Shown: in pieces, positions 8,725 to 60,683 of the stretch
Layout: each line of letters begins with the position of its first letter
Position numbering within the stretch: the first letter of the stretch is position 1
Virus record (IMG/VR): IMGVR_UViG_3300028131_000005
Span: 1-64,000 of that record
Length of the DNA stretch: 64,000 nt
Strand: one strand, 5' to 3'
Source of the DNA: a virus
The notes under the pieces: generated by a model
Database searches by the model: none
What the model was told of the DNA's origin: nothing
What the model saw: the letters and a program-made list of their open reading frames with translations, nothing else
Position numbers and translations under genes: made by a program

Positions 8725-8733
8725 GATATATAA
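8725..8733 (+). promoter_or_regulatory. GATATATAA late-promoter-like motif (example)
   Basis: GATATATA recurs just upstream of starts at 6457, 8725, 11230, 13587, 15768, 30158, 32296, 35451, 37772, 40426, 41314, 49699, 51774, 55138; reminiscent of the T4 late promoter TATAAATA. Confidence 0.65.
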
Positions 8734-11209: not shown

Positions 11210-11268
11210 AATAATCTCCATAACACTAAGATATATACTTTAACAAACTAAAAAAAATAATTTCAATT

Positions 11269-13524: not shown

Positions 13525-13539
13525 AAATAATTAAGATAA

Positions 13540-13567
13540 ATCAGGAAAGACTTCGGTCTTTCCTGAT
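13540..13567 (+). terminator. 12-bp hairpin with cUUCGg tetraloop between sheath and tube genes (terminator or mRNA stabiliser)
   Basis: ATCAGGAAAGAC-TTCG-GTCTTTCCTGAT; weak U-tract. Confidence 0.65.
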
Positions 13568-13622
13568 AAATTTTAAAAAAGAATTAGATATATAAAACAT
13601 AAATAAAAATAAAAATAAAGAA

Positions 13623-14177
13623 ATGGCATTACCACATTATTCAAACGACCAAACTAGCAAGAAAGGTAAGAATTTTGAACCAGTATTAGCGAATATGTTT
13701 GAGGTAACTATTCTTCCACCAGCAGGAGTTGGAGGTCAAGAATTATTAATTCAACATATTAATCAAATATCAGGTTTAGAACTTCATAAAGATTTGGGAA
13801 CAGTAACTCAAAAATTTAAGTGGTCTACAAGGTCTTTCACAGGTGTTCCTGGAGATTCCTTCTTAGACGTTACCGTTAACTTCTCATTAAACTTAAACGA
13901 TGCAAATCAAATGTATCTTTACAAAACAATGAGAGACTGGTACAGATTGGCATATAACCCAGAAACTGGAGAAACAGGTCTTAAAAAAGACTATGTTGGA
14001 CAGATGGTTATTGTTCAATTTAACAGAAAAGGTGATATTTTTAGAAAAATCACATTAGATGATTGTTTCGTTTTCTCACCAATAAATCCTTTGGCTGAAA
14101 ATAACTACGAAACAGGAGACGCACAAGCAATTGACGTTGTTTGGAGAGCTGACAACTGGTCAGAAGAGTTAGCATAA
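13623..14177 (+). CDS. tail tube protein (T4 gp19-like)
   Basis: Follows the sheath gene; W..LAYNPETG.TGLKKDY...IVQFNRKG...C..F pattern. Confidence 0.85.
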   Translation: MALPHYSNDQTSKKGKNFEPVLANMFEVTILPPAGVGGQELLIQHINQISGLELHKDLGTVTQKFKWSTRSFTGVPGDSFLDVTVNFSLNLNDANQMYLYKTMRDWYRLAYNPETGETGLKKDYVGQMVIVQFNRKGDIFRKITLDDCFVFSPINPLAENNYETGDAQAIDVVWRADNWSEELA

Positions 14178-15794: not shown

Positions 15795-18700
15795 TTGGCA
15801 AAACCATTCGCATCTCCATTCGAGAAATTATCAGGAGATAATCAAAAAGTAATAATTGAACAGCTTTCCCCAGGAGGAGAGCTGTTCAGTTTATTTGAAG
15901 AAATTCTAAAGCAGCTTCAAGGTACTGAAGAGAGAATAGAAAAAGACGAAGCCAAAACTAAAGTAAGTTTATTTGCCGGTTTAACAATGAAAGAGGCCAT
16001 TGCCTGGAAACTTCTAGGTGAAAAAGGTCTTCAAGCGGTAGGTAAAGGTCTAGGTGCTATCGCCGAAGTTATAGATGGTATGCAAACTGGCGGTAAAGAA
16101 GCCAAAGAAAAAATGGATGCTATCGCAACCGGTATCGAAGCTGTAATGGGTATAGCCCCTAAAATTCTTAAATTTGCTATTCTTTTAACACTTGCTCTAC
16201 CTTTCCTTATGGTTGCAATATTGGTAGTTCCACTTGTGGCAGTTCTGATGTTAGGTATTATGTTCGTAATGTCAATACTTAATAAATTAGCTGAAAATTC
16301 AAAAGAAGCCTATAAATCTATGGCTCTTTTAGGAGATGTTGGAGATGCCATTTTTAAATTTGGAGGAATGCTAGCACTTTCATTACTAGTATATCCATTT
16401 GCATTACTCGCATTAGTTGTCGTAATACCAACACTGTTATTAATGTTGGGCGCTCTTACTTTAATAGGGCGTTTAACAGACAAAGAGGCGTTAGAAAAAC
16501 TCAATGGTCTAAAAGATCTTGGGATATCAATACTCTTATTTGGTGCTGCTATAGCTCTAAGTGGGCTTGTATATACGTTCGCACTTCAGGCAATGCCCAT
16601 TGTTTTAGGTGTAATACTTGGATTTGCATTAGTATTCTTTTTATTAGATAAAATAGGTTTTGTAAAATCAGTGAATAAATCTGGTGAAGCATTACAAAAG
16701 GTAGGTATAGCCATATTAGTATTAGGTGCCGCTTTATTTATTTTTGGACTATTATTTCCACCAACAAAAGAAACTTTTCAAACTTTAGGATTTACAATGC
16801 TAGTGCTTGTAGGCGTTGCATTTGCGATGTGGCTAGTTGGAAAAATGTATAAAAAAATGAAAAAAGGTGCAATAGGCTTAGCTCTGACTGGACTTGCCAT
16901 TGTAGTATTAGCATATGCTATTAAAAAATTCCATAAAGCATTACCTCCAAACCCATGGGAATTCTTTGCTCAATTAGGAGTAGCACTTGTAGGTTTAGGT
17001 GTAATAATGTGGGGTTATGGAAAGAAATGGAAAGAAATAGGATACGGAGCACTAGTACTTGCAGGTACTGGAATAGCACTTGCAGTTATGGGATGGGGAG
17101 TTAAATCAATGGCAGACGCCTTAAATAGTACTGGAAATCCTTGGATGTTTATGGCTGAACTTGGAGTATTTCTTGTTGGAATGGGAGTTATGGCAGCCGG
17201 TTGGGGTGCAGCATCTGTATTAATAGGATTAGGAGCCGCAGCAATGGGAGCTACTGGATTAGCATTGAAAGCTGTATCTTTTGGACTTAAAGGCTTTGTA
17301 CCTATATTTGCAGGAAAAGAATGGAAAGCAATGGTAGGTACTCACCATCAATCTAAAGGTATTTTGGGGATGGGTGCAGGACCAGTATCTAATTTTCAAA
17401 CTTTAATGGAAGCAATTGGTTATGGTTTTGCATGGAACCCGATAAACTCTGCTATGATTTTAGCAGGAGCTGTAGCATTAGGTGCTGTTGGTTTAGCATT
17501 GTCACCAATAGCAAAAGGTATAAAAGCAATGATGCCTGTATTTAAAGGAAACGGTTGGAGAGATATGATTTCCACTAAAGGAAACCCAAAATCAGGAGGT
17601 TTTATGGGAATAGGAGCGTCAGCACAAACAAATATTCAACTTTTAATAAATTCATTAGGAGAAGCATTCAAATTTGGTTTCGGTTCTATAAATATTGGAG
17701 CTGGAGCTGCAGCAATGATTGTTGTGGGTAATTCTTTAATAAAAATAGGTAAGGGTATTGCCGATTTCATGAAGCACAAAATAGATAAAAAAGTAGCCAA
17801 AAATATTTCTGTTATGGTAGAGTCTATAGCAGGTGCATTTGGTAGAATTGGTAAAAAATACGGAGGTGCTGGTTTCTTTGGTTTAGGAGCCGGTGCTTTA
17901 TATGATGGTATTCAATCAACAATGGGAATGGGAGAAGCTTTAACAAGTATCGCAAAAGGTATGAAAGCCGTTTCAGTACTTAGATTCCCAACTTATGGAG
18001 ACCCTAATGACCCTGGAAAAATAACTGAGTATATAACAGTTGACAAGGGTGCTATGAATAAAATTTCAGCAAATGTTGCTATGATGGTAGAAAGTCTAGC
18101 AGGCGCATTTGGTAGAGTGGGTAGAATGTTTCCTAATAAACCAAAATCAGGTTTATGGGGTTTCTTAGGAGGAACTGACAACCCTGTAAAAACAGGTATT
18201 CAATCTGTTTCCGGTATGGGTTCTGCACTTGGTGGAATTGCCGAAGGTATGAAATCCTTTTCAACTCTTAAATTTCATAAATATGATGACCCTTCAAAAC
18301 CTGAGAAAATAACAGAGACAATTGATTTAACCAAAGGAGATGTACTTAAAAAAGTAACTGACAATATAGTTATGATGGTTGTTTCTTTAGCAGGAGGTTT
18401 TGCAACAATAGGTAGAAGATATCCAAAGAAAAAACACAAGGGCTTCTTTGGTACAACTTATACGACTACAGGTCCGGTAGGTGTTGGTATCGAGCAATCT
18501 TCTGGTATGGGTGGAGTTGTTGCTGGAATTGGTGCGGGCTTAAAAGACTTTTCAACACTTAAATTCCCAGTATATGAAGGAACTAAAATCAAAGAATATA
18601 TTGATTTAACAAAAGGAAATGTTCTTAAGAAAGTAACTGCAAACATCGTAGATATGATTTTATCACTTGCTACTGGTTTTGGTAATGTTGCTAGAAGATT

Positions 18701-20435
18701 CCCTAGAAGAAAATATAAAACTTGGTGGGGCGCTACTAGATACGCACCAGATGGAAAAGTTGGTGAAGGTGTTAAGCAAGCATCCGGAATGGGAGGAGTA
18801 ATATCAGAACTTGGTAAAGGTTTAAAAGACTTTTCAACTCTTAAATTCCCGGAATATAAAGGTAAAAAGTTAGTAGGGTATACTTCTTTAACCAGTGGAG
18901 GTATGCAAAAGGTTACAGATAATATCGTTGACATGATCGTTTCTCTTATGGACGGTTTTGGTAGAATAGGTAAGAAATATCCTTTCAAAAGAGCGTCTGG
19001 TCTCCTAGGAGAAATGGGTATTAATAATACAGGTGATGTAGGTGCTGGTATTGCACAGGGTAAATATTTAGGTAGAGTACTGGGAAATCTTGCAAGAGGT
19101 ATTAGCTGGTTTGCCATATTGAAATTCCCTAGATATAAAGGTAAAAGAATTGTAGGTTATGACACAATGACAGGAGATGCTCCTAAGAAAGTGGCTAAGA
19201 ATATATTCCAGATGATTTATTATCCAATGGATGCATTTGGTAGAATAGGTAAGAAATATCCAATGGGTCCACCAAAAGGACTTTTTGGTTCACGGCTATC
19301 AGGACCAGCTGGTCAAGGTATATCATCAGCAAAATATTTAGGAAGAACTTTAGCAACAATAGCAATGGGATACGCATATATGGCTAAACTTAGATTTCCT
19401 GAATATGGTGACCCTTCACGTCCAGATAAAATAACAGGTTACAAAACTTTAGCAGGAGATAATTTAAAGAAATTAGGTAAAAACATATACATGATGATTT
19501 ATTACCCAATGGATGCATTTGGTAGAATAGGTAAGAAATATGGCGGAGATGACACAATGTTTGGCTTCAAAGTTGGACCTCCTAAAAGTGATGTTTCGAA
19601 AGGTATGAATCTTGCAAAAGGTTTACCAATGGCTTTAGCTTATGTATTTGCTGGAATAAAAGGAATAGTAAAGGACCCTTCTGTAGTTAAACTTGGTAGT
19701 ATTGCAGCACGTACTATGAAAGAGATGGCACATGCTCTTTTAGGTTTTGATAAAGTAGGTTCATTTAAAATAATGTTTTTAGGAAAAGCAGTACGCTTCT
19801 TTTTAAAATCTTGGCAAGATGGTGTCAAAGGTTTAGGAGCTCTTTTAAAATTCCAAAGATTAGGAAGAACTGCACATGCATTCCAAAGAATGGCAGACGC
19901 ATATACTCAAATAGGTGAAGTAGGGCCATTTGCCCACATGGGAATTAATAAAATGATAAAAATAGCACATGCTGCTAAATTAACAGAAACTGCAAAAAGT
20001 TTTAGATCGATCGCAATATCTTATGGTAAAATACAGGAGACTTCTCAAAGAATGAATTTAGAAGCCCTTGAAAAATCAACAGAAATGTTTAAAGCACTTG
20101 CATATCTTACTGAAAATGGAGGAGAAGATGCAATGGCTACGCTTGGTGATAGTTTAATTGAAGCAGTTAAAGAACTTGCATCTATGATAGCCAATTTTGA
20201 ACAAACTGTAGAAGATGCTAAAGAATCAAACCAAGAGTTAGGTACTCAAATTGAAAAATCAAGCACTGCTATGACAGAGATGCCAGCATGGATGGCTAAC
20301 CAACCAACACCTATTGGAGAACCAGAACCTCAACCAGCTCCGGCTGTAACACCTGCAGGAGGAAACATGCAAGAATTAATAGATATATTGACAAGTGGAG
20401 AAGCTATTATAAGAGTAAAAGAACCCATGGGTTAA
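15795..20435 (+). CDS. tape measure protein (1546 aa)
   Basis: Very long Ala/Gly/Leu-rich protein with a TM-like region and ~70-90 aa repeats; follows the tail chaperone-like genes; GATATATAA at 15768. Confidence 0.8.
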   Translation: MAKPFASPFEKLSGDNQKVIIEQLSPGGELFSLFEEILKQLQGTEERIEKDEAKTKVSLFAGLTMKEAIAWKLLGEKGLQAVGKGLGAIAEVIDGMQTGGKEAKEKMDAIATGIEAVMGIAPKILKFAILLTLALPFLMVAILVVPLVAVLMLGIMFVMSILNKLAENSKEAYKSMALLGDVGDAIFKFGGMLALSLLVYPFALLALVVVIPTLLLMLGALTLIGRLTDKEALEKLNGLKDLGISILLFGAAIALSGLVYTFALQAMPIVLGVILGFALVFFLLDKIGFVKSVNKSGEALQKVGIAILVLGAALFIFGLLFPPTKETFQTLGFTMLVLVGVAFAMWLVGKMYKKMKKGAIGLALTGLAIVVLAYAIKKFHKALPPNPWEFFAQLGVALVGLGVIMWGYGKKWKEIGYGALVLAGTGIALAVMGWGVKSMADALNSTGNPWMFMAELGVFLVGMGVMAAGWGAASVLIGLGAAAMGATGLALKAVSFGLKGFVPIFAGKEWKAMVGTHHQSKGILGMGAGPVSNFQTLMEAIGYGFAWNPINSAMILAGAVALGAVGLALSPIAKGIKAMMPVFKGNGWRDMISTKGNPKSGGFMGIGASAQTNIQLLINSLGEAFKFGFGSINIGAGAAAMIVVGNSLIKIGKGIADFMKHKIDKKVAKNISVMVESIAGAFGRIGKKYGGAGFFGLGAGALYDGIQSTMGMGEALTSIAKGMKAVSVLRFPTYGDPNDPGKITEYITVDKGAMNKISANVAMMVESLAGAFGRVGRMFPNKPKSGLWGFLGGTDNPVKTGIQSVSGMGSALGGIAEGMKSFSTLKFHKYDDPSKPEKITETIDLTKGDVLKKVTDNIVMMVVSLAGGFATIGRRYPKKKHKGFFGTTYTTTGPVGVGIEQSSGMGGVVAGIGAGLKDFSTLKFPVYEGTKIKEYIDLTKGNVLKKVTANIVDMILSLATGFGNVARRFPRRKYKTWWGATRYAPDGKVGEGVKQASGMGGVISELGKGLKDFSTLKFPEYKGKKLVGYTSLTSGGMQKVTDNIVDMIVSLMDGFGRIGKKYPFKRASGLLGEMGINNTGDVGAGIAQGKYLGRVLGNLARGISWFAILKFPRYKGKRIVGYDTMTGDAPKKVAKNIFQMIYYPMDAFGRIGKKYPMGPPKGLFGSRLSGPAGQGISSAKYLGRTLATIAMGYAYMAKLRFPEYGDPSRPDKITGYKTLAGDNLKKLGKNIYMMIYYPMDAFGRIGKKYGGDDTMFGFKVGPPKSDVSKGMNLAKGLPMALAYVFAGIKGIVKDPSVVKLGSIAARTMKEMAHALLGFDKVGSFKIMFLGKAVRFFLKSWQDGVKGLGALLKFQRLGRTAHAFQRMADAYTQIGEVGPFAHMGINKMIKIAHAAKLTETAKSFRSIAISYGKIQETSQRMNLEALEKSTEMFKALAYLTENGGEDAMATLGDSLIEAVKELASMIANFEQTVEDAKESNQELGTQIEKSSTAMTEMPAWMANQPTPIGEPEPQPAPAVTPAGGNMQELIDILTSGEAIIRVKEPMG

Positions 20436-25836: not shown

Positions 25837-26694
25837 ATGATACAACTCAACTTATATCCAAATCAAAAAAAAGGAATCGACTACGAAATTTATAAATTTC
25901 CAGATGGTCAACAATCTATTAAAATAGAAGATTTTGCATTTCAGCATGATGTTTTAGAGGTAGAAATTGTAAGCCCTTTTACTTCATTCCTAGATTTAGA
26001 ATTAATAATCTGTGCTAACCAAGCCCTTAAAGAAATGGGAGTTCAAAAAGTCAGTTTATATACCCCATATTTCTTAGGTGGTAGAAGTGATAGAAAATTC
26101 GAAGAAGGAACTTCAAACTATTTAAAAACAGTAGTTTGTCCAATTATTAACAGTCAAAACTTTGATAGAGTTACTGTTTTAGACCCACATTCAGATGTAA
26201 TAGAAGCGTGTCTTAATAACTTCAAAGGAATCGATACTCTTGATTTTGCTGATCAGGTTTTAAAAGATGTAAAAGACCAATATTACCCAACATCGGAATA
26301 CCCAGTGGTACTTGTATCTCCAGATGCAGGAGCTCTCAAAAAAGTATTCAAAATTCAGAAAGCTACAAAGATTGAAAATCTTGTAATTGGCTCTAAAAAT
26401 AGAGATGTTAAAGGTCAAATAACACATACTTCTATTTCAGGACTGAAAGACATAAATATCTCAAACGCAACCTATGTTATCTTTGATGATATATGCGATG
26501 GAGGTAGAACCTTCCTTGAACTTGCTAAAGTTATAAAAAAAGAAAAAGAAAATGCTAGAATAGTTTTAGCAGTAACACATGGTCTCTTTACTAAAGGTCT
26601 TCCGATCGAACATGTCGACCATGTATACACCACAGACTCTATTGTTCGTGAATTTGAATCAAAGAGTCTTACTATTATAAATTGTAACAAATAA
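25837..26694 (+). CDS. ribose-phosphate pyrophosphokinase-like protein (probable ADPR-PP synthetase, NARP1 Adps-type)
   Basis: KFPDGQ, PYFLGGRSDR, LDPHS, VSPDAGA, DDICDGGRTF (PRPP-binding loop), VTHG. Confidence 0.88.
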   Translation: MIQLNLYPNQKKGIDYEIYKFPDGQQSIKIEDFAFQHDVLEVEIVSPFTSFLDLELIICANQALKEMGVQKVSLYTPYFLGGRSDRKFEEGTSNYLKTVVCPIINSQNFDRVTVLDPHSDVIEACLNNFKGIDTLDFADQVLKDVKDQYYPTSEYPVVLVSPDAGALKKVFKIQKATKIENLVIGSKNRDVKGQITHTSISGLKDINISNATYVIFDDICDGGRTFLELAKVIKKEKENARIVLAVTHGLFTKGLPIEHVDHVYTTDSIVREFESKSLTIINCNK

Positions 26695-26705
26695 ACCTAT
26701 ATAAT

Positions 26706-28223
26706 ATGAAAATGAATAGCTTATTTTTAACAGATGGTTACAAAACAGGACACCATCAACAATATCCAAAAGGAACAAACACTGTTTATTCCAACTGGAC
26801 ACCAAGAGGAAACAAGTACGCACCGAGAGGTTGTGATAAAGTTGTTTCATTTGGACAACAAATGGTAATTCAATGGTTAGTAGACCATTTCAATGAAAAC
26901 TTTTTTAGTCAGCCTAAAGAAGAAGTTTGTGGCCAAATGAAAACTGAATTGTCAATGTACTTAAATACAGACTATGATGTAACTCATTTTGAAGAACTTC
27001 ACGATTTAGGTTATCTTCCTATTGAAGTGAAATCTATAGAAGAAGGAATTGAAGTTCCTTTAAGAGTTCCAATGTTGACAGTGCAAAATACTGGAAACTT
27101 TGGATGGTTGACTAACTTTTTAGAGACTATTTTCTCTAACATGTTATGGCAACCAATGACTTCAGCAACAATCGCTTTATTATATAAGCGAATTTTAACT
27201 GAAGGTGCTTTAAAAACGGATAAAGATGCAATTGGTTTCGTAGACTTCCAAGGACATGACTTTTCTATGAGAGGAATGGGAGGATTTATGAGTACCATCT
27301 TAAGTGGACTAGGACACGCTGCCGCATTTAGTGGAAGTGATTCTTTGCCAGTTATTGCAGCAGCCAGAAACTACTATGATGAAGATGGTTTTATCGTCGG
27401 TTCAGTAAACGCTACAGAGCATTCAGTAATGTGTGCTGGAACTAAAGGAGATGAATTAGGAACCTTTAGAAGATTGATGGAGACTTATCCAACAGGAATA
27501 TTAAGTATTGTATCTGATACTTGGGACTTATGGACAGTAGTCACTGATTATTTACCAACTTTAAAAGACGAAATCATGAGTCGAGATGGTAAAATAGTTA
27601 TTCGACCTGACAGTGGAGACCCAGTAGATATTCTTTGTGGATATAACTCTCTTACGACAGACGAGTTCAAGGGCAAGGCAATCACTGTGGGTGATGCACA
27701 TCCTGCTAATAAAGGTTTAATTGAACTTTTATGGGAAACCTTTGGAGGAACCACAAATTCACAGGGTTACAAAGTCTTAGACCAGCATATTGGAGCAATT
27801 TATGGAGATAGTATTACTCCAGATCGAGCAAGACAAATTATTGAAAGACTTGCTAGAAAAGGATTCGCTTCTACAAACGTAGTTCTAGGTATTGGAAGTT
27901 ACACTTATCAGTACAACACTAGAGATACATTTGGTTTCGCGATGAAAGCAACCTATGTTGAAGTTGAAGGAAAAGGAAGAGAAATCTTTAAAGACCCTAT
28001 CACAGATGATGGAACCAAAAAATCTGCAAAAGGTTTATTACATGTAAGTAAGAACCCAGAAACTGGAGAACTAGAACTAAGAGATATGGTTTCTAGAAAA
28101 ACAGAAGCAGAAGGAGAATTGAAAACTATCTTCAAAGACGGTAAATTCTACAATAGAACTACCTTAACTGAAGTTAGAAATAAAATCTCTAACTTAATTA
28201 CAAACCCTAAATTGGTTAAATAA
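26706..28223 (+). CDS. nicotinamide phosphoribosyltransferase-like protein (probable NARP1 Namat-type)
   Basis: TDGYKTGH, HDFSMRG, ATEHSVM, SIVSDTWD, IRPDSGDP, IYGDSIT, GFAMKAT, KDPITDDGTKKSAKG. Confidence 0.92.
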   Translation: MKMNSLFLTDGYKTGHHQQYPKGTNTVYSNWTPRGNKYAPRGCDKVVSFGQQMVIQWLVDHFNENFFSQPKEEVCGQMKTELSMYLNTDYDVTHFEELHDLGYLPIEVKSIEEGIEVPLRVPMLTVQNTGNFGWLTNFLETIFSNMLWQPMTSATIALLYKRILTEGALKTDKDAIGFVDFQGHDFSMRGMGGFMSTILSGLGHAAAFSGSDSLPVIAAARNYYDEDGFIVGSVNATEHSVMCAGTKGDELGTFRRLMETYPTGILSIVSDTWDLWTVVTDYLPTLKDEIMSRDGKIVIRPDSGDPVDILCGYNSLTTDEFKGKAITVGDAHPANKGLIELLWETFGGTTNSQGYKVLDQHIGAIYGDSITPDRARQIIERLARKGFASTNVVLGIGSYTYQYNTRDTFGFAMKATYVEVEGKGREIFKDPITDDGTKKSAKGLLHVSKNPETGELELRDMVSRKTEAEGELKTIFKDGKFYNRTTLTEVRNKISNLITNPKLVK

Positions 28224-42881: not shown

Positions 42882-44036
42882 ATGAGAATTAAACCAATAA
42901 ATGAATTCATGAATATTTTAGAAGCACAGCAGAATCTAAAATTAAATGTACCAAAAGATGTTAAAGACCTTCATAAACTTTTTAAGAAGAATAAAAGGGA
43001 ATTATACATTGTTGGAGGAGCTGTCCGAGATGCACTTCTTGGCCAAAAACCAAAAGACTTTGATTTAGCAACCGATGCTAAGCCAGAAGAGGTTATAAAA
43101 ATCTTAAAATCTGGAGGAGTTCCAACAATTGGAGAAGTTGGTCATCAGTTTGGAGTTGTAATTGCAAAAACACCAAGTTTTGCAGAAGGAATGGAAATTG
43201 CTACATTTAGAGAAGACATTGGAAAGGGTAGAAGACCTGATGCTGTAGAATACTCAACAATAGATAAAGATGTTCTTAGAAGAGACCTTACAATCAATGC
43301 GTTGTTTTACGATATTGAAAGTCAAAAAGTAGTTGACCTGGTAGGAGGAGTTGCAGATATTCAAAGTAACACAATTAGAACAGTTGGTCGAGCTCAAGAA
43401 AGATTTGATGAAGACCCATTAAGAAAATTAAGAGCATTGAGATTTGCAGGTAGAACAGGAAGTAAACTTGAAAAGAATACAGCAGAGGCTATAATTAGCG
43501 ATAACAGCTTAGAAGATATCAGTAGCGAAAGAATTAGAGACGAGTTTAAGAAATCTGTAGAAAGCGCAAAGTCTGCCAAGTTCTACTTAGATATGGTTTC
43601 GGAATTTAGTCTTTGGGGAGTAATGTTTCCCGGCTTGGAAATCAACAAAACATTTTTAGATACTAATAATTGGCTTTTGCAAATTACTCAGTTGTTTGGA
43701 GATAACCAAGAAGAACTTCTTAAAAAAGAATTAAATAAGATGTCTTTTTCAAATCAAGAAATAGATACAATTATATTCTTTAAAAGATTTTTAGAACTTA
43801 AACCAGAAACTGCGTTTCAATTAAGTAAGGAATGGAAAATTGCAAAATTAGATAAAAAATTACTTTTAGAATTTTCTAAGATAAATAAACTAGACCTTAA
43901 ATTAGTAAAGGCATTCTTTAAATACAAACCTTCTACGAATGGAGGTCAAATAATGAAAGAATTTGGTCTTAAAGGTTCTGCAATTGGAGATAAAATAAAA
44001 GAAATAGAAACAGAAAAATTTAAAAAATTACTATAA
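42882..44036 (+). CDS. cca: tRNA nucleotidyltransferase (class II, CCA-adding type) with an N-terminal leader extension
   Basis: VGGAVRD..LG..PKDFDLAT, EIATFR, RRDLTINAL, RFDEDPLR.LRALRF, SSERIRDE. Confidence 0.88.
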   Translation: MRIKPINEFMNILEAQQNLKLNVPKDVKDLHKLFKKNKRELYIVGGAVRDALLGQKPKDFDLATDAKPEEVIKILKSGGVPTIGEVGHQFGVVIAKTPSFAEGMEIATFREDIGKGRRPDAVEYSTIDKDVLRRDLTINALFYDIESQKVVDLVGGVADIQSNTIRTVGRAQERFDEDPLRKLRALRFAGRTGSKLEKNTAEAIISDNSLEDISSERIRDEFKKSVESAKSAKFYLDMVSEFSLWGVMFPGLEINKTFLDTNNWLLQITQLFGDNQEELLKKELNKMSFSNQEIDTIIFFKRFLELKPETAFQLSKEWKIAKLDKKLLLEFSKINKLDLKLVKAFFKYKPSTNGGQIMKEFGLKGSAIGDKIKEIETEKFKKLL

Positions 44037-49729: not shown

Positions 49730-51736
49730 ATGAGTAGAGTTTTAACGTCAGAGGCATTTATGTTAGTCAACGGTTTAGATATTCAACATTCAGGAGAATG
49801 GGAAGATTATTTAGAAATGAATGCACAGATAAATGGTTTAACAAGGGAAGAATATGCAGCATACTATTTAAACACACAATGGCAAATGCAGTGTATGGAA
49901 AGTATTGTTACTTTATTTGAAGCTAAAAAAGTTACAAGAAAGCAATTAGATAAGGCTCTTGGCGAAATCACAAGAATTACTCAAGATTTGAAAGCAACCG
50001 TTCTTTTATGGAAAGATGCTAAAGAAAATGGAAATGGTGCTAAAGAAAAAGAACATTTAGATACTTTAAAGAAATTAAATGCTGAGAAGAAAGAAGCAGA
50101 GAAAGAAGTAGAAGGGTTTATTAAAGGACTTGATAAGAATGTAGAATTAGACATGTCAGAATCTGTTAATGAAGGTTTTAGCGCAAAAGAAAAATCTTCG
50201 GTCGAAGCTATTACAGTAGCTGTTGAAAATTGGTTAGGTGATTATGACAACGTTGAAGATTTCAGAGAGTTTGCAACCCATTCTACACATAAAGATTCGA
50301 AAGAAAAGGAAAAGATAATAGCAAAAGCTTTATCTAAACTTCGAATCATGAATTTTGATGATGGTGAAAAAGAGCCACATGAGTATTTGATTAAGAAAAA
50401 ATCTAAAGAATTAACAAAACATATTGCAATGGAGCTTGGTCAAGCTTGGGAATCAAAAGTTAATGAAGGTACTGAAGTTACCAAAGATATGTGGGACAAA
50501 GAATGGCCACTTAAAAAAGTATTTGGAAAAGAATACGAGGCTAATTTCGCAAAAAGAGTAGAAGCAGCAATGTCAAAAGCTAAAGACGAAGAACAAGCTG
50601 AAGAATGGGCTTATAAAAACTTTAAACAACTTCCAAACCCTGCAAAAGGAATGACTATCGAAGAATCTGTATTTAACGAAGCTAAATTTGTGAGCCACTA
50701 TGCGCCTGGAGATGAATTTATGCGAAAAAAAATCAAAAGTATAGAATTGATTGATAAGAGAAAAGAAATTTATACTATAACATACGTAGATGGAGAAACT
50801 CAAAATGTTCAAGCAGGTACAGGAATGCAATTTCACGTAAAACGACTTTTTGATGAATCAATTGTGAATGAGAAAAAAGGAGGCCCATGGCCAGAACAAT
50901 TAGAAAAAGGTTTAACCCACTGGGGTCACAAAAAAGGAAGTCATGTCAGAGAACTTAAAACCCTTCCTTGTAGAATTGGAAGAAATGCAAATGATTATGG
51001 TGGACCTAACCATGCACAAGAACTTGCAGACCTTAATATGAAAGACCCAATGGTTAAGAAATTCTTTAAGCCTAAATTTAAAACTAGAGCAGATGGAAAT
51101 TATGTAAATGACTATGTTGAACTAATTCCTAAAAAGGGTTATTTATATAAATTATTTGTAGGTACTGGAGGATTTGAATATTTCTGTTTAGCGATTAAGC
51201 CAGGAGAGGTTTACATATTTAGAAAATATGACCGAGCATATAACCAATATGAATATTTCCAGCATGAAGAAGGTATGTCAACAAGATCAGGAGTATTTGA
51301 TTTTAAAAGACATAGAGAAGAAGAGCAATGGAAATGGAATAAACAAGAACCAGAAAGCGCTAGTCATATCGTAAAAGTTGGATGGGGAATCATGGATATT
51401 GGTCTAGAGTATACTCAATTAGAACTTCCATTCGAGCATCTAAAAACTTATGAAAGTTTTGTTACTGAAAAAAAAAACCTAACTAGTGAAATTAAAGACG
51501 CATTAGAAAATGGTTTAGTTAATGTTGGAGGAGACAGGGTTAAAGTTTCTGTTACAAATAAAAACCAATATAAAATTTATCCATACGACTCTCTTAGTGA
51601 TGGTGATTGGACAAAAGCAGATTTACGAGATAATTTCAAAGATTTAGTTGACGACCTTAATTTTGCATTTAATGGGAAATACGCATTTTCACCAATTGAT
51701 GTTACTAATAAAGAATGGATAATAGAATTACTCTAA
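49730..51736 (+). CDS. modular polyprotein-like ORF A (668 aa) with repeated ES(x)VNE linkers; candidate internal head protein
   Basis: Linkers ESVNEG (50159), ESKVNEG (50450), ESVFNEA (50663), ESIVNEK (50855), HLKTYESFVTEK (51437); GATATATAA at 49699. Confidence 0.7.
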   Translation: MSRVLTSEAFMLVNGLDIQHSGEWEDYLEMNAQINGLTREEYAAYYLNTQWQMQCMESIVTLFEAKKVTRKQLDKALGEITRITQDLKATVLLWKDAKENGNGAKEKEHLDTLKKLNAEKKEAEKEVEGFIKGLDKNVELDMSESVNEGFSAKEKSSVEAITVAVENWLGDYDNVEDFREFATHSTHKDSKEKEKIIAKALSKLRIMNFDDGEKEPHEYLIKKKSKELTKHIAMELGQAWESKVNEGTEVTKDMWDKEWPLKKVFGKEYEANFAKRVEAAMSKAKDEEQAEEWAYKNFKQLPNPAKGMTIEESVFNEAKFVSHYAPGDEFMRKKIKSIELIDKRKEIYTITYVDGETQNVQAGTGMQFHVKRLFDESIVNEKKGGPWPEQLEKGLTHWGHKKGSHVRELKTLPCRIGRNANDYGGPNHAQELADLNMKDPMVKKFFKPKFKTRADGNYVNDYVELIPKKGYLYKLFVGTGGFEYFCLAIKPGEVYIFRKYDRAYNQYEYFQHEEGMSTRSGVFDFKRHREEEQWKWNKQEPESASHIVKVGWGIMDIGLEYTQLELPFEHLKTYESFVTEKKNLTSEIKDALENGLVNVGGDRVKVSVTNKNQYKIYPYDSLSDGDWTKADLRDNFKDLVDDLNFAFNGKYAFSPIDVTNKEWIIELL

Positions 51737-54451: not shown

Positions 54452-54633
54452 ACAATAATACACATCACAAATATAACAACTATGGATATTAAAAAAATAC
54501 AAGAAAGATTAAGAGTATTAAAAGAAGAAATAACCATGGATTCATATTATGATGGATGGACATTAAAAGGTCTTATAAAGGAATATAATGAAAAGAAAGC
54601 TTTGCTTGAAAACCTTAAAAATAATGAAGAAAC

Positions 54634-55137
54634 ATGAAACGTATCCTACTCCTACTTATTTTAATAACATCATTTATTACAAAATCTCAAACTATTAACT
54701 TTCATCCTAGTTCTTCTCCAGCAGAAATAGTTTTTTTAACTAAAGCAGCCCAAAAATATATTAATGACGATGATGTCACAATTATTTATCAACCATACTC
54801 ACCTTTAAATAGAGCATTTAACGGGGTAACTTATCAATATAATAAGTATCTTTATCAAATATCTTTATCTGTATTTAGAACCGATAATATTCTAAGAACT
54901 TGGGCTTTATTTCACGAAGTAGGTCATATTATTGATTTCCACAAAGGCAGATTAGAACAAATGCCAATCCGATGGAAAGGAGAAGAATATAAAGAATATT
55001 TAGATTGGAAGGATAGGCCATGGGAAAAAAGCGCTGAAAAACACGCTAGAAAATTATGGAAAGATATAATGGGTTTTCCAGCCCCTTTTGAACTTTTAAA
55101 TTCTTCTGAGATAGAATTTAAGTGCGAACATAAATAG
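54634..55137 (+). CDS. secreted zincin-like metallopeptidase
   Basis: Signal peptide MKRILLLLILITSFITKS-Q; LFHEVGH (HExxH) and downstream PWE. Confidence 0.7.
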   Translation: MKRILLLLILITSFITKSQTINFHPSSSPAEIVFLTKAAQKYINDDDVTIIYQPYSPLNRAFNGVTYQYNKYLYQISLSVFRTDNILRTWALFHEVGHIIDFHKGRLEQMPIRWKGEEYKEYLDWKDRPWEKSAEKHARKLWKDIMGFPAPFELLNSSEIEFKCEHK

Positions 55138-55169
55138 GATATATAATATCATAATAAACATACTAATTA

Positions 55170-58100
55170 GTGATGAAAAACAAATTTATAAATGAAAACA
55201 CATATTTAGATGCGTCTAATGATTTTGTAAAAGAATTAGAAAAATCAAAAATTTTAGCAGATAATATAGATGTTTCAGTTGGCCCTTCTCAATGGGGTAA
55301 ACCAGGAGAACTTAGATTTAGAGACCATGTTACATTAAGAGCAGCTGGAATAGAAACTGAGTTATACGTAATACCTAGAGGAAGTTACACTGAATTCGAA
55401 TTATATACCGATACTGGATATGATACAGGAAGAGAAGTAAAAGTAGGTGATGCTAAGACTATTATTAAAGCAATGAAAAGATACGTTAATAAAATGAATG
55501 AATCGATGGTTAATGAAGCTAAAGTCAAACTTCCTAAAGGAATTGTAAAGCATAAAGATATTCCAACTTGGGCTGGGTGGGTTGCACAGCATTCTGATGG
55601 AGAATGGACTTGGTACGAATCTTACCCTTTTGTCGTTAACTTTAAAGACGGTGGAGGTGCTTGGAAACAAGAAGAATCAGAAGGATATCAAATTTACACT
55701 GGAGTAAAAACAGACCCTAAAAACTGGAAAGAAGGCCCATATCGAGTAAGATATGATGGAGATGTTGTACTGAAAGAATCTAGACATGTAATGACATTAG
55801 AATCATTTGTAAATGAAGGTAAAGTTGATTGGAATATCATCGCAAAAGAAGTAGCAAATAGATTGAAAGAAGGTTCATGGCCATGGGCAATTAAAAATGG
55901 CGTAGAAAATATAACCACTGAAAATATCGGAAGTGTTCTTATAAGCGGTGGATATACTACTACTTCTGGTGTCGAAAAAAATATAGGAGGTGTTATTGAT
56001 AAAGTATTAGCTCTTGTCAAAGAATCATTTGTAAATGAAGAATTGCCTACACAAGAAATAGACCCAAATGCTTTTCAAAATCCTTACAAATCAGATAAGA
56101 ATTTCTTTAAAAGAGGTTATAAAGATGAAGAGGTAATGGACGATGTTGTTAAGACTAGACCTGTAAAAATACAAGCAAGCCAATTAAAACCATCACAAGA
56201 TGCAGTATATTTAGGAAAAGCACTTGGCATGGCTATTGGTGGTGTTGAAGGCGGAAATCTTGAAGCTGTTATATCACAAGACAATAGAATCTTAGATGGT
56301 CATCATAGATGGGCAGCTACTATCTTTAATAACCCTAAAGCAAGGGTAGGAGGGGTTCAAGCAGAACTTAAAATTGGAGATTTAGTACCAGTTCTTAGAC
56401 AAGCAGGAGATGCACTTGGAAATAAAAGAGGTCTTCCACCAAAAGGAGGAGACCAAAATATTTTCAAAGCAACTTTAGATGATGTCAAAGACGCTATATA
56501 TGATGGTAAATATATGAATCCTCAGTTTTATAACAGAGATAAAGCAATTGCTTGGTTTGAAGAGCAAGGTGAAAAGAAAATACAAAGTGCATTGAATCTT
56601 TTACAAAGAGTTGGTCCTCCAGCTGGAGCTCCACCAAGAGCAGATATGCCTAAGATTGAACCAGAACAGGTTCAACAAGTTGCAAAAAAACTACAAGGTG
56701 GTGCAATTGATGTAAGAGCACCCTATGTAAAAGAAGAGTTGAATCATTTAACTTCTTTAGAAAATTTTATAGATGAAAAGAAGCCAGGTCCAGATCCTTA
56801 CATGACCGGTTTAAGTGATGGCGACGAAGAGGATAAAGAGGAGCAAATGAAAAAGCAGGCTGCCATGGACGATGACGATCCAAATGCATATAAAGATATG
56901 CCAGGAGACAAAGAGGCCAGAGAAAAAGGCGACATGAAGAAATCAAAACATACTAGTGCGTATCATAAAAAATTCAAGAAAGTTAAAAGTCTTGAAGAGT
57001 TTGCAAATGATTGGGCGGTTATTAAAGAGGGATATAATGCAGATGCAGTCGCTCAAAATGTTGTAGTTGCGCTAGACAGCGCTGCCCAATTCTTTCCAAG
57101 ATATCAACCTGCTGAAGCAGAAGCAGAAGTAAAAGATGTATTGAAGAAATATAAAAAACTAAAGGGTAAAAATGCTGAAAAAGCAGCTAAAGAGATAAGA
57201 AACTCTTTAGAAGATAGAGGTTTATTAGCAAATGATGTTTTACCATTAGATGTAGAAATAATCATTATGGATAACCTTAATGAATCTAAAGTACATGAAG
57301 CTGCAACTGATAGATTTTTACAATCAGCAGCAAGAAACTTAGCAAAACAGATGAGAGGAAAATCTGCTAGCAGGACAACTCTTAAGAATCGATTAAATTC
57401 AATGCCATTGGCAAACATGCTTAAACCAGATGAATTGGAAAAGATTATTGATTATGCAATGGAGGAAATGGGATTAGCTGAATCAGTAAATGAAGGTACA
57501 GATGATGTTGTGTTTACAATAGATGATGGAAATTTAGATAATAAATTTTTAATGACTAAAAGTCTTTCCAGAAATCTAGACTATCAACATGACAGCGGAG
57601 ACCAATATTATGTTTTACCAAAAAGAGATTTTGATAGATTAGAAGACTATGCAGATTCTCATGGTTATGATACAGACACTATTTATGTAATTGAAGAATC
57701 AGTAAATGAAGAGAAAGACAATCTTTATTTACAACTACATAGAAAATATGCTCAACAAATCAAAGGACTTAAGGCTAAAAAGATTAAGAAATTAACTGAC
57801 TTAGTAAGTGTACAAAGATGGTCGATGGAATATAGAGAAGACTATTTCGATATGGATAAAAAGAAAAAGAAAGAACTTTCAGCGGAATATGATGAGGAAA
57901 GAAGGCTATTTAAGAAATATATGGCTAAAGACTATTCAGTAATGCTACCTAAAGGAACAGAAAGTCTTAGAGAATCCATCAATGAGGGAGAAATATCTGA
58001 TACATTCGATCTTATTTTAGATACTATTAATAAGTATAAGAAAATAAAACCAGTAAAGCCATATTTTAATGCAGATAGAAGAATGGCATTAAAATCTAAA

Positions 58101-58598
58101 GGACTTGAGAATTTAGAAGATATCCGTGACCATTTAGATAAAACTCTAAAAGATTTTACAGTTACGTCAATTTCTAAAGGCGATAATTATCCTTCGCAAG
58201 AAAGTTTTAGAGTAATTAATAAAAATAGAAAAATTTATTCTATTGCAATGGACCTTAAGGAACCTGGAGAATTTGATATTACATACTCAGACTTAAATGA
58301 ATCAGTTAATGAAGAGAAAGACCAAACTAACGATAAAAGCAAAATAGACGGTGAAGGTATAGAAACTGGTCTTAAGAAAAAGGCTGATGAAACTGGAGTT
58401 CCAATTGGAATTTTAAGAGTTATTATGAGAAGAGGAATGGCAGCTTGGAAAAGTGGTCACAGACCTGGAACTAATTCAACTCAATGGGGTTATGCTAGAG
58501 TAAATTCATTCTTAACAAAGGGTGATGGAACTTGGGGCAAAGCTGACAAAGATATGGCTAAAGAGGTAAGAGATGGTGGTCACGATAAAAAACTATAA
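55170..58598 (+). CDS. modular polyprotein-like ORF B (1142 aa), about 11 modules including a ParB/Srx-like domain
   Basis: About 10 ES(x)VNE-type junctions; ParB/Srx-like LKPSQ...ILDGHHRWAA; C-terminal RRGMAAWKSGHRPG...QWGYARVNSF domain; GATATATAA at 55138. Confidence 0.75.
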   Translation: MMKNKFINENTYLDASNDFVKELEKSKILADNIDVSVGPSQWGKPGELRFRDHVTLRAAGIETELYVIPRGSYTEFELYTDTGYDTGREVKVGDAKTIIKAMKRYVNKMNESMVNEAKVKLPKGIVKHKDIPTWAGWVAQHSDGEWTWYESYPFVVNFKDGGGAWKQEESEGYQIYTGVKTDPKNWKEGPYRVRYDGDVVLKESRHVMTLESFVNEGKVDWNIIAKEVANRLKEGSWPWAIKNGVENITTENIGSVLISGGYTTTSGVEKNIGGVIDKVLALVKESFVNEELPTQEIDPNAFQNPYKSDKNFFKRGYKDEEVMDDVVKTRPVKIQASQLKPSQDAVYLGKALGMAIGGVEGGNLEAVISQDNRILDGHHRWAATIFNNPKARVGGVQAELKIGDLVPVLRQAGDALGNKRGLPPKGGDQNIFKATLDDVKDAIYDGKYMNPQFYNRDKAIAWFEEQGEKKIQSALNLLQRVGPPAGAPPRADMPKIEPEQVQQVAKKLQGGAIDVRAPYVKEELNHLTSLENFIDEKKPGPDPYMTGLSDGDEEDKEEQMKKQAAMDDDDPNAYKDMPGDKEAREKGDMKKSKHTSAYHKKFKKVKSLEEFANDWAVIKEGYNADAVAQNVVVALDSAAQFFPRYQPAEAEAEVKDVLKKYKKLKGKNAEKAAKEIRNSLEDRGLLANDVLPLDVEIIIMDNLNESKVHEAATDRFLQSAARNLAKQMRGKSASRTTLKNRLNSMPLANMLKPDELEKIIDYAMEEMGLAESVNEGTDDVVFTIDDGNLDNKFLMTKSLSRNLDYQHDSGDQYYVLPKRDFDRLEDYADSHGYDTDTIYVIEESVNEEKDNLYLQLHRKYAQQIKGLKAKKIKKLTDLVSVQRWSMEYREDYFDMDKKKKKELSAEYDEERRLFKKYMAKDYSVMLPKGTESLRESINEGEISDTFDLILDTINKYKKIKPVKPYFNADRRMALKSKGLENLEDIRDHLDKTLKDFTVTSISKGDNYPSQESFRVINKNRKIYSIAMDLKEPGEFDITYSDLNESVNEEKDQTNDKSKIDGEGIETGLKKKADETGVPIGILRVIMRRGMAAWKSGHRPGTNSTQWGYARVNSFLTKGDGTWGKADKDMAKEVRDGGHDKKL

Positions 58599-58608
58599 TA
58601 TATAAGTT

Positions 58609-59001
58609 ATGAAAAAAGTAGTATTATTTGAACAATTTGTTAATGAGAACATTAACAAAAGAATTCCGGAATTCGTAGAAAAAATTAAAAACGCGGAGAC
58701 TGAATTCGATGCAAAAAATAAAAGGTCAGAGATACTTAAATTAGCTAAGAAATCTGGCGGAGAAACTATCGACCAAGATACTAAATTTACCTATTCTCCA
58801 GATGGTGAAATATTTGTCGTATATAAATATGAAGACCAAGATGCAGTAGATGCCTGGTTATATAAGGGTGAAGGATCTGAAAAGTCTAAAGAAAATCTAG
58901 TAAAGTCTATGGTATATGCTGAAACTGGAAGACCCGGTTATAGAGTAATGTCAGATGGCAGTAAAACAAAGATAGGTAAACACGGAGAAACAAAATATTA
59001 A
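58609..59001 (+). CDS. protein with leader MKKVVLFEQFVNE (candidate internal head protein)
   Basis: Leader shared at DNA level with 59006 and 60102. Confidence 0.65.
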   Translation: MKKVVLFEQFVNENINKRIPEFVEKIKNAETEFDAKNKRSEILKLAKKSGGETIDQDTKFTYSPDGEIFVVYKYEDQDAVDAWLYKGEGSEKSKENLVKSMVYAETGRPGYRVMSDGSKTKIGKHGETKY

Positions 59002-59005
59002 GATT

Positions 59006-60097
59006 ATGAGCAAAGTAGTATTATTTGAAAAATTTATAGAAGAAAGGTCAAATGCCGGGAGAGCATGGCAAGGAAGATTAGATAACGTAGACGATTTAAT
59101 GGCCTGGTTATATAGAAAAGATATTCTTTCAACACAGGATAAGATGGAAAAAGACAAGATATTTACCGGATATTATAGATTCTATAATGACGGAGATACA
59201 CCAGATTGGTTAAGAATAGATCGAAATGAAACTCCTGAAGAAGCATTAGAAGACGCTCTTGACAACTTTATTAAGGAAATACTTGCTAAATATGCTGGTA
59301 AATATGATAGAAACACATTTAGATACGATACTCTGTTATCTCAATTAAATACTTTAAAAAGTAATTTGAAAGATACTGCTACTCCGCAGTTTTCTCAATA
59401 CGACGTACATTCTTTTTTATATTTCTATAATAAAAATCCTAAAACTGGAAATGCAAAGTTTGATAAATCAGTTGTGCAGTTAGAAAAATTATTTAAAAAA
59501 TTCGAAAAAACAGCAGATGCTCAAATTGAAAAATATCTTAAAGATAGTAAAAAGAAAGAAGAATTTGGAGGAATATCTACAAATCTTATTTTAGGTGCTA
59601 AAGTTGAGAAAATGCTAGATGCAGGAATATGGAATGACAAAAACAAAAAAGAATATAAAGATATAGTTGAAGTGGGTGATAGACTTTATCAAATGATTGA
59701 AGAAATTATTGAAGGTATAAAAATGGCTCAGAAACTAGAAGAAGGTAATTATGAAGCATTAGACAAATCTACTTTAATTATGGAAAAGTCAAGTGGTAGA
59801 GACTTTATGAATTATGTGTTAGCACATAAAAAAGGAACAAGTGCTTTCAAACAATTTAAAATTTCAGATGAACATAGAAAAGAAATAATAGATATGTGTA
59901 TTGAAGTTATGGATGAAGTAGGAGATAAAGGTTCTTCTGTTCTTGGAAGCGGCTTATATATTAATGATGAAAAATTCTTAAGAGCATATTCACAAGGAAA
60001 TGTAGGACCTGAAAGAATTTACAATAAGGTTGAAGCATTTTTAAATAAAAACTATCCTAAATTAGATGTAAGAGTATCTAAAGGAAATATGGACTAA
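59006..60097 (+). CDS. two-module protein with leader MSKVVLFEKFIEE
   Basis: Leader as above; internal KLEE...LIMEK junction; YYRFYNDGD motif. Confidence 0.65.
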   Translation: MSKVVLFEKFIEERSNAGRAWQGRLDNVDDLMAWLYRKDILSTQDKMEKDKIFTGYYRFYNDGDTPDWLRIDRNETPEEALEDALDNFIKEILAKYAGKYDRNTFRYDTLLSQLNTLKSNLKDTATPQFSQYDVHSFLYFYNKNPKTGNAKFDKSVVQLEKLFKKFEKTADAQIEKYLKDSKKKEEFGGISTNLILGAKVEKMLDAGIWNDKNKKEYKDIVEVGDRLYQMIEEIIEGIKMAQKLEEGNYEALDKSTLIMEKSSGRDFMNYVLAHKKGTSAFKQFKISDEHRKEIIDMCIEVMDEVGDKGSSVLGSGLYINDEKFLRAYSQGNVGPERIYNKVEAFLNKNYPKLDVRVSKGNMD

Positions 60098-60101
60098 GAT
60101 T

Positions 60102-60683
60102 ATGAAAAAAGTAGTATTATTTGAACAATTTATAAAAGAAGCATCTAGGGGTAAATGGACTAAAATCGATCCTAAAAAAGATAAGGACCTAGATGACCAT
60201 TTTTACGATTTAATAAATGTTGCATATGCTGAAATAGGAGGCCATGTTAAAATCAATAAACCAGAAGACGTATTTGCTGATAAAGACTGGACTTTTTGGA
60301 GAGGAATAGACCTTCATGGTTCTCCAGACTTAGACCTTATTATTTGGGGTAAAGATACCAAGTATGGCGTTAAATTTGCAGGAGTCGGTCATGATGGTGA
60401 AAGAGACAGCAGAAAAGAATACTTAAATCATAAAGGCAGCGACCTTAAAAAACTAGGATATTATGGTGAAGTCTCTGGTAAACTAGCAGAAATTTTACTA
60501 ATTAAATATGGAGTTCCTGCAGTATCTGATGAAGCAGAAGTAGAAGCTGCTATTGGTGGTAAAAATGTCGAATGGCATGGACAACATCCTAAAGATAATA
60601 CTATTCCTGGAAATGGATGGTACAGCAGAAAAATAGGAGGTCAGATGCATACTAAGATACTTGTAGGTAGACCTAAAATATAA
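60102..60683 (+). CDS. protein with leader MKKVVLFEQFIKE (possible GNAT-like fold)
   Basis: Leader; YDLI..AYAEIGG...K.TKYG.K..G.GHDG...YSRKIGG..HTK..VG.P. Confidence 0.6.
   Translation: MKKVVLFEQFIKEASRGKWTKIDPKKDKDLDDHFYDLINVAYAEIGGHVKINKPEDVFADKDWTFWRGIDLHGSPDLDLIIWGKDTKYGVKFAGVGHDGERDSRKEYLNHKGSDLKKLGYYGEVSGKLAEILLIKYGVPAVSDEAEVEAAIGGKNVEWHGQHPKDNTIPGNGWYSRKIGGQMHTKILVGRPKI

Follow-up and report, generated by a model that had tools for sequence, protein, structure and literature searches.

Leader-like linkers in a multi-module protein of an uncultured marine phage: a candidate polyprotein cargo for the phage head

Introduction

What would a phage do with a single protein made of some ten unrelated blocks that are set apart by one and the same kind of short peptide? 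The question is raised by an open reading frame (ORF) at positions 55170–58598 (+ strand) of the virus record IMGVR_UViG_3300028131_000005, a 78,889-bp IMG/VR virus contig with an estimated completeness of ~31% (CheckV). The window analyzed here is the first 64 kb of this contig. A preliminary description, made from the letters of the DNA alone, saw in the ORF a virion-packaged, protease-matured “magazine” of small proteins that are injected with the phage DNA. The composite reading that we prefer is close to this proposal: a late-expressed precursor that is loaded into the head, where the prohead protease cuts it, and whose modules are injected with the DNA. We consider this reading probable, with a confidence somewhat better than even.

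A Chain of Modules with Recurrent Linkers

The ORF exists exactly as first described, in a single frame on the + strand, and encodes 1142 amino acids (aa) when counted from a GTG codon. Gene callers place the start at the ATG at 55173, which gives a protein of 1141 aa (P0001), and this is the probable start. The N-terminal leader that follows consists of 8 residues (55173–55196, + strand) and ends in F-I-N-E. Nine clear linkers of the ES(x)VNE type then divide the chain, all of them at junctions that the preliminary description had listed: ESMVNE (linker 1, 55500–55517), ESFVNE (linker 2, 55800–55817, a long form with a fossil leader upstream), ESFVNE again (linker 3, 56022–56039), ENFIDE (linker 4, 56760–56777), ESKVHE (linker 5, 57282–57299), the short form ESVNE (linker 6, 57480–57494), ESVNE (linker 7, 57696–57710), ESINE (linker 8, 57972–57986), and ESVNE (linker 9, 58299–58313), each on the + strand. 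One further junction, proposed near 56980, found no support, since residues 537–709 are kept as one 173-aa unit in the relatives. The original estimate of about 11 modules thus holds for the 10 that are well marked, while the eleventh hangs on that junction; the sizes range from 65 to 246 residues.

The linker had also been taken as a repeated peptide signal, and the statistics bear this out. The strict pattern ES.?[VIL][NDSH]E has 8 copies in the protein, whereas 5000 shuffled versions of it contained 0.03 on average and never more than 2. A logo built from 257 + 239 = 496 distinct instances in homologues gives the consensus [LIVF]-x-E-S-(x)-[VIL]-[NT]-E followed by A, G, E or K, a form that consists of two tandem hydrophobic-x-Glu sites. 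The codons of the linkers differ synonymously from copy to copy, including TCN versus AGT for Ser, and selection therefore acts on the linker peptide. Some copies are also alike as DNA: linkers 2 and 3 are identical over 18 nucleotides (nt) and linkers 6 and 7 over 15 nt, and such stretches of 15–18 nt could serve as microhomology for recombination.

The blocks named in the preliminary description proved to be real. They include a Trp-rich block (residues 117–216); module 4, a ParB/Srx-like module of 246 aa (residues 291–536; 56040–56777, + strand) which ends in linker 4; modules 5–6, a DDDDPxAYK..PGD basic/acidic peptide with a helical part (from residue 537; 56778–57299, + strand), ending in linker 5; and module 11, the terminal block of 94 aa (58314–58595, + strand), which was recognized as DUF5824 (PF19141) and is the near-universal C-terminal module of the family. 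The match to DUF5824 covers residues 1071–1128 with an E-value of 6.5e-14 and 52.6 bits, against a curated cut-off of 25. It is the only Pfam family on the ORF, and the remaining modules have no known relatives in Pfam or PHROGs. We infer that the modules fold independently, as units of 7–27 kDa. No HExxH motif occurs in the 1142 residues and no peptidase family was found in Pfam or PHROGs; any processing must therefore come from a separate enzyme.

The Linker as an Internalized Leader

The same peptide is found at the start of separate genes. Twelve of the 97 ORFs of the contig have the leader motif in their first 18 residues, as compared with 0.9% of internal 18-residue windows. About 10 of the 12 look genuine, and they are clustered at 55–61 kb and at 71.5–76.7 kb. 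Three tightly packed single-module genes downstream of the polyprotein (58609–60683, + strand) each begin with a 13-residue leader ending in F-(V/I)-x-E; at the start of these genes, as at 71.5–76.7 kb, the linker peptide is preceded by M-K-x-x. Stand-alone homologues of the modules allow the two forms to be aligned. In the stand-alone ParB-like and DUF5824 homologues the last residue of the leader coincides exactly with that of the linker in the polyprotein, and those of module 4 begin with a leader that ends at the end of linker 3. The long linkers look like leaders without their Met, and the linker is best read as an internalized copy of the N-terminal leader of single-module genes.

There are further genes of this kind on the contig. 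A second polyprotein, of 668 aa with 5 linkers of like kind (49730–51736, + strand), has the motif GATATATAA in front and matches nothing in Pfam or PHROGs. Seven leader-tagged genes are arrayed at 71562–76745 of the contig, among them three paralogues of ~300–336 aa (72520–75455) that have no match in Pfam or PHROGs; PF03496 was absent from the contig search, and the label of an ADP-ribosyltransferase is not used for them. A tRNA nucleotidyltransferase-like protein (42882–44036; PHROG 2244, residues 39–383) has a leader-like N-terminus, which hints that enzymes too may be tagged for the head. The leader DNA at 58609–58646, finally, is met in other seawater contigs with unrelated flanks on both sides (in four runs, with loose ends at 58609 and at 58646), as would be expected of a leader that many different genes of co-occurring phages have in common.

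Modules Exchanged at the Linkers

Related proteins were collected by a word-indexed search, which returned 336 proteins of 628–1999 residues; most of the 120 listed end in DUF5824. Module sharing was assessed in a full HMMER scan, in which 2353 proteins share at least one module. For the order of modules, the proteins were cut at the strict linker and the pieces clustered.

Neither the order nor the number of the modules is invariant. Relatives that are 89–96% identical over the shared parts have the same modules in another order and number. The first module of the window, for example, is the third in three relatives (P0007 to P0009) and the eighth in another (P0003), where it is internal to the chain and has a full linker in front. 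Moreover, 60 of the 81 internal ends (74%) of high-identity alignments (high-scoring segment pairs, HSPs) lie within 10 residues of a linker, versus 21% at random. Gain, loss and reordering of modules at the linkers, which the preliminary description had expected from a comparison of orthologs, is thus what this comparison found.

Within this variation there is a recurrent core, consisting of the ParB-like module, the DDDDPxAYK unit, and the terminal DUF5824. Relatives can have up to 16 segments between strict linkers, and enzymes have been inserted in some of them, for example a cytidylyltransferase or ATP-grasp domains. A simpler form is seen in gp130 of the Pelagibacter phage HTVC008M, with a cytidylyltransferase, one linker, the DDDDP peptide, and DUF5824. 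This phage is an isolate, and it encodes both a prohead protease and the DUF5824 polyprotein.

The Prohead Protease and Head Proteins of Relatives

A gp21-like protease was part of the original proposal, and the search for it gave a divided result. Neither PF03420 (the gp21 protease) nor PF07068 (gp23) has a match in the 78.9-kb contig itself, a fragment of ~31% completeness; because this incomplete contig is without head genes, the absence carries no weight, and the protease has to be deduced from relatives. The PF03420 protease is present in all five of the long relatives tested (TerL 72–89% identical), where it is fused to a scaffold-like region, and also in PTm1 and in LR756500, a 462-kb phage. 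The closest of the five (G005) has the protease and a DUF5824 polyprotein on one contig.

The linker motif had been predicted to recur at the cleavage sites of capsid and scaffold proteins, and in the relatives it does recur in proteins of the head. The protease domain of all five ends in an invariant R-V-N-E. The scaffold-like part has A-E-S-x-N-E-G in five of five and A-E-S-I/L-N-E in four of five relatives. At the N-terminus of the capsid protein (PHROG 138) there is a mini-leader with L/I-N-E at its end, followed by A or S, and a small gene between portal and protease has the full leader at its start. In T4 this position between portal and protease is that of the cleaved core proteins gp67 and gp68. 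The replication and repair genes in the same loci of the relatives are without the motif.

The likeness to T4 can be followed residue by residue. In the T4 record, IPII and IPIII start with a 10-residue tag ending in F-I-A-E, followed by A, and residues 61–65 of gp23 read S-F-L-T-E, followed by A-E; the gp23 propeptide is 65 residues long (PMC5694885). In the T4 capsid targeting sequence (CTS), targeting depends on positions 4 and 7 and processing on positions 8 and 10 (PMC9026906). Numbered from the cleavage site, the four positions become P7, P4, P3 and P1. In T4, a change of the P1 Glu to Asp is reported to prevent cutting (PMC9026906). The long linker is hydrophobic at P7, hydrophobic or aromatic (often F) at P4, and aliphatic (V or I) at P3, and it has Glu at P1; the short-form linkers are without the hydrophobic P4. 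As far as sequence can tell, the linker has the shape of the T4 CTS and of the gp23 maturation (gp21) site. A complex prediction for the G005 protease domain (residues 1–166) with residues 192–236 of the polyprotein had a score of 0.00, which is no answer, and it is used in neither direction.

A Promoter-like Motif Shared with Structural Genes

The late-type motif that had been noticed upstream of the ORF is GATATATAA at 55138–55146 (+ strand), ~25 nt in front of the polyprotein. The window has 12 copies of it in total (at 8725, 13587, 15768, 28775, 30158, 32296, 35451, 37772, 41314, 49699, 51774 and 55138), all of them on the + strand, as compared with 2.3 expected, and each is 25–35 nt before a start codon. 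Besides the present ORF, copies stand in front of the second polyprotein (49730), of the tail tube gene (13623), and of the gene at 8749 that comes before TerL. We regard GATATATAA as a candidate late-type promoter of this phage clade; its being common to the polyproteins, the tail tube gene and the terminase-region genes would fit late co-expression. The classic T4 late box TATAAATA is enriched in the window (29 versus 13.8 expected), but on both strands.

Folds of the Conserved Modules

The AlphaFold 2 (AF2) model of the ParB/Srx-like module has a predicted local distance difference test (pLDDT) score of 90.3, and a Foldseek search of the PDB gave E-values of 0.025–0.5, with top PDB rows that are all ParB/Srx proteins. 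The 22 best structural rows consist entirely of ParB, Noc, sulfiredoxin, serine kinase or SbnI, with modest scores. The VIA comparison reached a Z of 4.4 at best, over 85–94 residues with a root-mean-square deviation of 3.2–3.9, and the best relevant match of the profile against the PDB had an E-value of 0.14. The likeness to the ParB/Srx core covers residues 39–133 of the 246-aa module. A DGHHR motif (DGxHR-type) is invariant in 24 sequences of the module. The ParB/Srx domains of phage polyvalent proteins have been proposed to be nucleases regulated by nucleoside triphosphates (NTPs) (PMC5512222). The present module is a putative NTP-dependent nuclease or nucleotide-handling enzyme.

DUF5824 is modeled by AF2 as a five-helix bundle (pLDDT 90.5). 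A fold search of this model against the PDB gave nothing below an E-value of 1.7, a feature search of the ESM Atlas with PF19141 left out gave no usable match, and no paper on DUF5824 was found in the open-access literature. The domain and the DDDDPxAYK peptide occur almost always together, in small proteins too and in either order, and the DDDDP peptide is found also in HTVC008M gp130. Cleavage of the linkers in the head, if it occurs, would place DUF5824 in a functional context for the first time.

How the Locus Might Work

Under the reading that we prefer, a precursor with about ten modules would be recruited to the prohead core through its CTS-like tag. A T4-type (gp21-family) prohead protease would cut this precursor in trans after Glu residues, and the freed modules would stay in the head and exit with the DNA at infection. 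Among the proteins released in this way would be the ParB/Srx-like module, the DUF5824 helical domain together with the DDDDPxAYK peptide, and several other small domains of unknown fold. Modules would be added, dropped or reordered at the joints, by recombination or by the fusion and fission of genes, without loss of function; the modules would be interchangeable at the joints because each carries the same in-frame address-and-cut joint.

A wider form of the idea might be called plug-and-play cargo. Here, one peptide would act as capsid address, cut site and recombination joint at the same time, a dozen small effectors would be co-packaged at a fixed 1:1 ratio and quickly reshuffled within one gene, tagged genes and polyproteins would interconvert, and the arrangement would be widespread in tailed phages. 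We put this forward tentatively, as something that may well be so but on which we would not quite bet.

A number of observations weigh against the preferred reading. The resemblance to the T4 CTS covers 4–7 residues only, and hydrophobic-x-Glu is a low-information rule in a proteome rich in Glu, Asn and Lys. Where the capsid protein of the relatives aligns with the Glu65 site of T4, the motif is missing. The contig itself is without a protease, portal or capsid gene, all head genes being missing from the ~31% fragment. A distant polyprotein uses a different linker, of the N-E-E-V-E type; on its contig (G001; 141.8 kb, ~77% complete, hence also incomplete) a head protease of the T4 or HK97 type was looked for without success, and the G005 protease has no match there. 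No module matches a known anti-defence protein, and the effector role is assigned by analogy only. Of the “magazine” as it was first proposed, what stands is the leader, the linker with its CTS shape, the shuffling, and the motif in head proteins; targeting, cleavage, packaging with retention in the head, injection, and effector or anti-defence roles are what we infer. The distant polyprotein is worth an observation of its own: it belongs to another lineage, has 1538 aa and DUF5824, is encoded at 9020–13636 of the local stretch, and its joint is of the N-E-E-V-E-x-x-E type.

Alternative Explanations

The alternative that survives best keeps loading and cleavage and changes the purpose. The protein would be the precursor of a prohead core, scaffold or “inner body”, a structural part that fills or sizes the giant head and whose fragments are mostly expelled or inert. 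It is in keeping with this that gp22, gp67 and gp68 of T4 are cut into small pieces (PMC5694885), that giant phages have no recognized gp22 counterpart and contain large internal protein masses (PMC9026906), that the scaffold-like region fused to the protease has the motif as well, and that many of the modules are small helical units. We nevertheless think it unlikely. Module content differs strongly between phages that are 89–96% identical, which is unlike an essential architectural part; relatives insert enzymes (for example the cytidylyltransferase or the ATP-grasp domains); and the catalytic-type DGHHR is invariant across the 24 sequences of the ParB/Srx-like module.

The second alternative does without cleavage. 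The ORF would encode a “polyvalent” protein that acts as one chain, packaged or not, and the linker would be a flexible joint or a site of recombination microhomology. Phage polyvalent proteins can indeed go in unprocessed, as exemplified by the N4 virion RNA polymerase (PMC5512222), and the DNA identity of some linkers over 15–18 nt (55800/56022 and 57480/57696) would have a possible use in recombination. The synonymous changes in other copies (TCN versus AGT), however, indicate that it is the peptide which is conserved. A mere spacer also does not explain why this peptide heads separate genes, or why the relatives have it in their protease, scaffold and capsid proteins, and we judge the uncleaved chain to be improbable.

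It is less probable still that the leader and linker are read by something else, be it a protease or chaperone of the host, a different phage peptidase, or an export route, with release or sorting of the modules in the infected cell rather than in the capsid. The contig offers a potential actor for this: the gene directly upstream of the polyprotein, at 54634–55137, encodes 167 aa with a HEVGH zincin-type motif and a clear signal peptide, and the prohead protease is not on the same contig. This secreted zincin-like protein, however, has weak peptidase matches (E 0.005–0.03; PHROG 87 at 0.005, Pfam M90 at 0.026) in addition to its signal peptide, the linker is without the hydrophobic character of an export signal, and in five relatives the motif is tied to head assembly, since their protease-scaffold, capsid and core-position proteins have it. 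Lastly, a chance pattern or an artefact of assembly or gene calling is refuted by the 8 strict motifs where 0.03 are expected, by hundreds of homologous single ORFs on independent contigs, and by the recovery of the stretch intact in many seawater runs, including one 4171-nt contig.

Source Phage and Occurrence

The G+C content of the window is ~31%, and the + strand carries nearly all ORFs of at least 90 aa, leaving aside those nested inside a larger + strand gene. The window encodes a large terminase, tail sheath, tail tube, clamp loader, ligase, and enzymes for the salvage of nicotinamide adenine dinucleotide (NAD). The nearest terminases are those of uncultured huge phages and of jumbo phages of Tenacibaculum, Flavobacterium and Sphingomonas, at 29–45% identity. 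On the strength of this terminase and of the gene content, we place the source phage as an uncultured marine giant member of the T4 superfamily.

Upstream of the polyprotein there are collagen-like tail-fibre genes. Two other places in the window deserve mention. A phosphoribosyl pyrophosphate (PRPP) synthetase-like gene and a nicotinamide phosphoribosyltransferase gene are adjacent at 25837–28223 and form an NAD salvage pair. After the tail tube region, a 1546-aa ORF without a PHROG match (15795–20435) has GATATATAA in front, and its G+C (0.36–0.37) and GC skew are above those of the surroundings.

The polyprotein stretch is present intact in many seawater metagenomes as well as in the 4171-nt contig mentioned above, which comes from a seawater metatranscriptome, spans 54466–58636 with zero differences, and may reflect DNA carry-over; being from an RNA library, it bears on the nucleic acid and not on the protein. 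In some seawater runs, reads or contigs have joints that skip parts of the ORF, with sides shorter than 40 nt. These joints probably come from other phages with shared conserved modules, and they are not used as evidence of module deletion.

Comparison with Known Systems

The closest counterpart of the tag is found in the internal proteins of T4. IPI, IPII, IPIII and Alt are brought into the head by a CTS and processed by gp21 (Mullaney and Black 1996, as cited in PMC9026906 and PMC3012670), and the CTS has been suggested to be an evolutionary device to load various proteins (PMC9026906). The system described here is alike in having a short tag with the P7, P4, P3, P1 pattern on unrelated proteins, a gp21-family protease in the lineage, and variable clusters of tagged genes. 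It differs in that T4 has one cargo per gene with one tag, whereas here up to ~11 modules are in frame and the tag is repeated as a joint. The linker also has a second hydrophobic-x-Glu site upstream, unlike the T4 tag.

For the chain of many domains, the counterpart is the polyvalent proteins of phages and conjugative elements described by Iyer, Burroughs, Anand, de Souza and Aravind in 2017 (PMC5512222). These proteins have 2–15 domains, often with one of the ParB type, are encoded next to late or virion genes, show mosaicism, and have been proposed to enter with the DNA, in analogy to viral polyproteins (PMC5512222). The present protein, with its 10–11 modules, is likewise a chain of many unrelated domains next to late or virion genes. 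A hallmark of the polyvalent proteins is the DdrB-like ParB domain; what can be set beside it here is a probable ParB/Srx fold with the invariant DGHHR motif. The main difference concerns processing. In the polyvalent proteins it was assigned to an embedded zincin-like metallopeptidase (MPTase) or to a C-terminal assemblin-like peptidase, and it was not treated as obligatory (PMC5512222). The protein described here has no peptidase domain, and its repeated joints match the site of a separately encoded prohead protease. The word “linker” is absent from that work, and “internal protein” refers there to T4 IPI only (PMC5512222). DUF5824 was not found in the part of the polyvalent-protein inventory that was accessible (PMC5512222).

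A third comparison is with the giant phages phiKZ, 201phi2-1 and SPN3US, whose gp175/gp245 protease cuts head and inner-body proteins after Glu (PMC5694885, PMC9026906). These phages are similar in that the protease is related to that of T4, the motif is short, there are often several sites per protein, and cargo is ejected into the host. However, their extra sites are in long propeptides that are discarded, so that each gene gives one mature product, and there are no module chains with uniform joints. Polyproteins that are cut at a repeated short motif, some of whose products become components of the virion, are otherwise known from picornavirus-like RNA viruses and from the pp220 and pp62 proteins of African swine fever virus. 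Their protease families, motifs and domains are unrelated to those discussed here, and the analogy is operational only, with no relationship implied.

Is there, then, anything new in this arrangement? The preliminary description was not aware of a multi-module version of the T4 internal proteins. In so general a form this calls for a reservation, in view of the polyvalent proteins, which are multi-domain and delivered with the DNA, and for which processing by an embedded peptidase has been proposed. For the combination of a repeated CTS-like joint, a separate prohead protease, and a tag shared by free genes and polyproteins, no described case was found in the open-access literature, and among the papers listed for “capsid targeting sequence” the titles and opening parts of the abstracts gave nothing about tagged polyproteins.

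Should the linkers be cut in the head, this clade would have turned the capsid-targeting tag of T4 into a general joint for cargo polyproteins, and the polyvalent-protein concept would be extended to processing in trans by a morphogenetic protease. It would explain how the heads of giant phages come to be filled with many small proteins. It would also provide a catalogue of candidate injected effectors, with hundreds of module families delimited by the motif, which could aid the discovery of anti-defence proteins in uncultured marine phages, as well as a rule, taken from nature, for designing T4-type capsids that deliver several proteins. If the plug-and-play form is true as well, we would be dealing with a widespread, undescribed head-loading route of tailed phages; the modules of this single polyprotein have matches in thousands of metagenomic proteins. 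In terms of what is already known, the system is no new category: it combines the tag logic of the T4 internal proteins with the many-domain logic of the polyvalent proteins.

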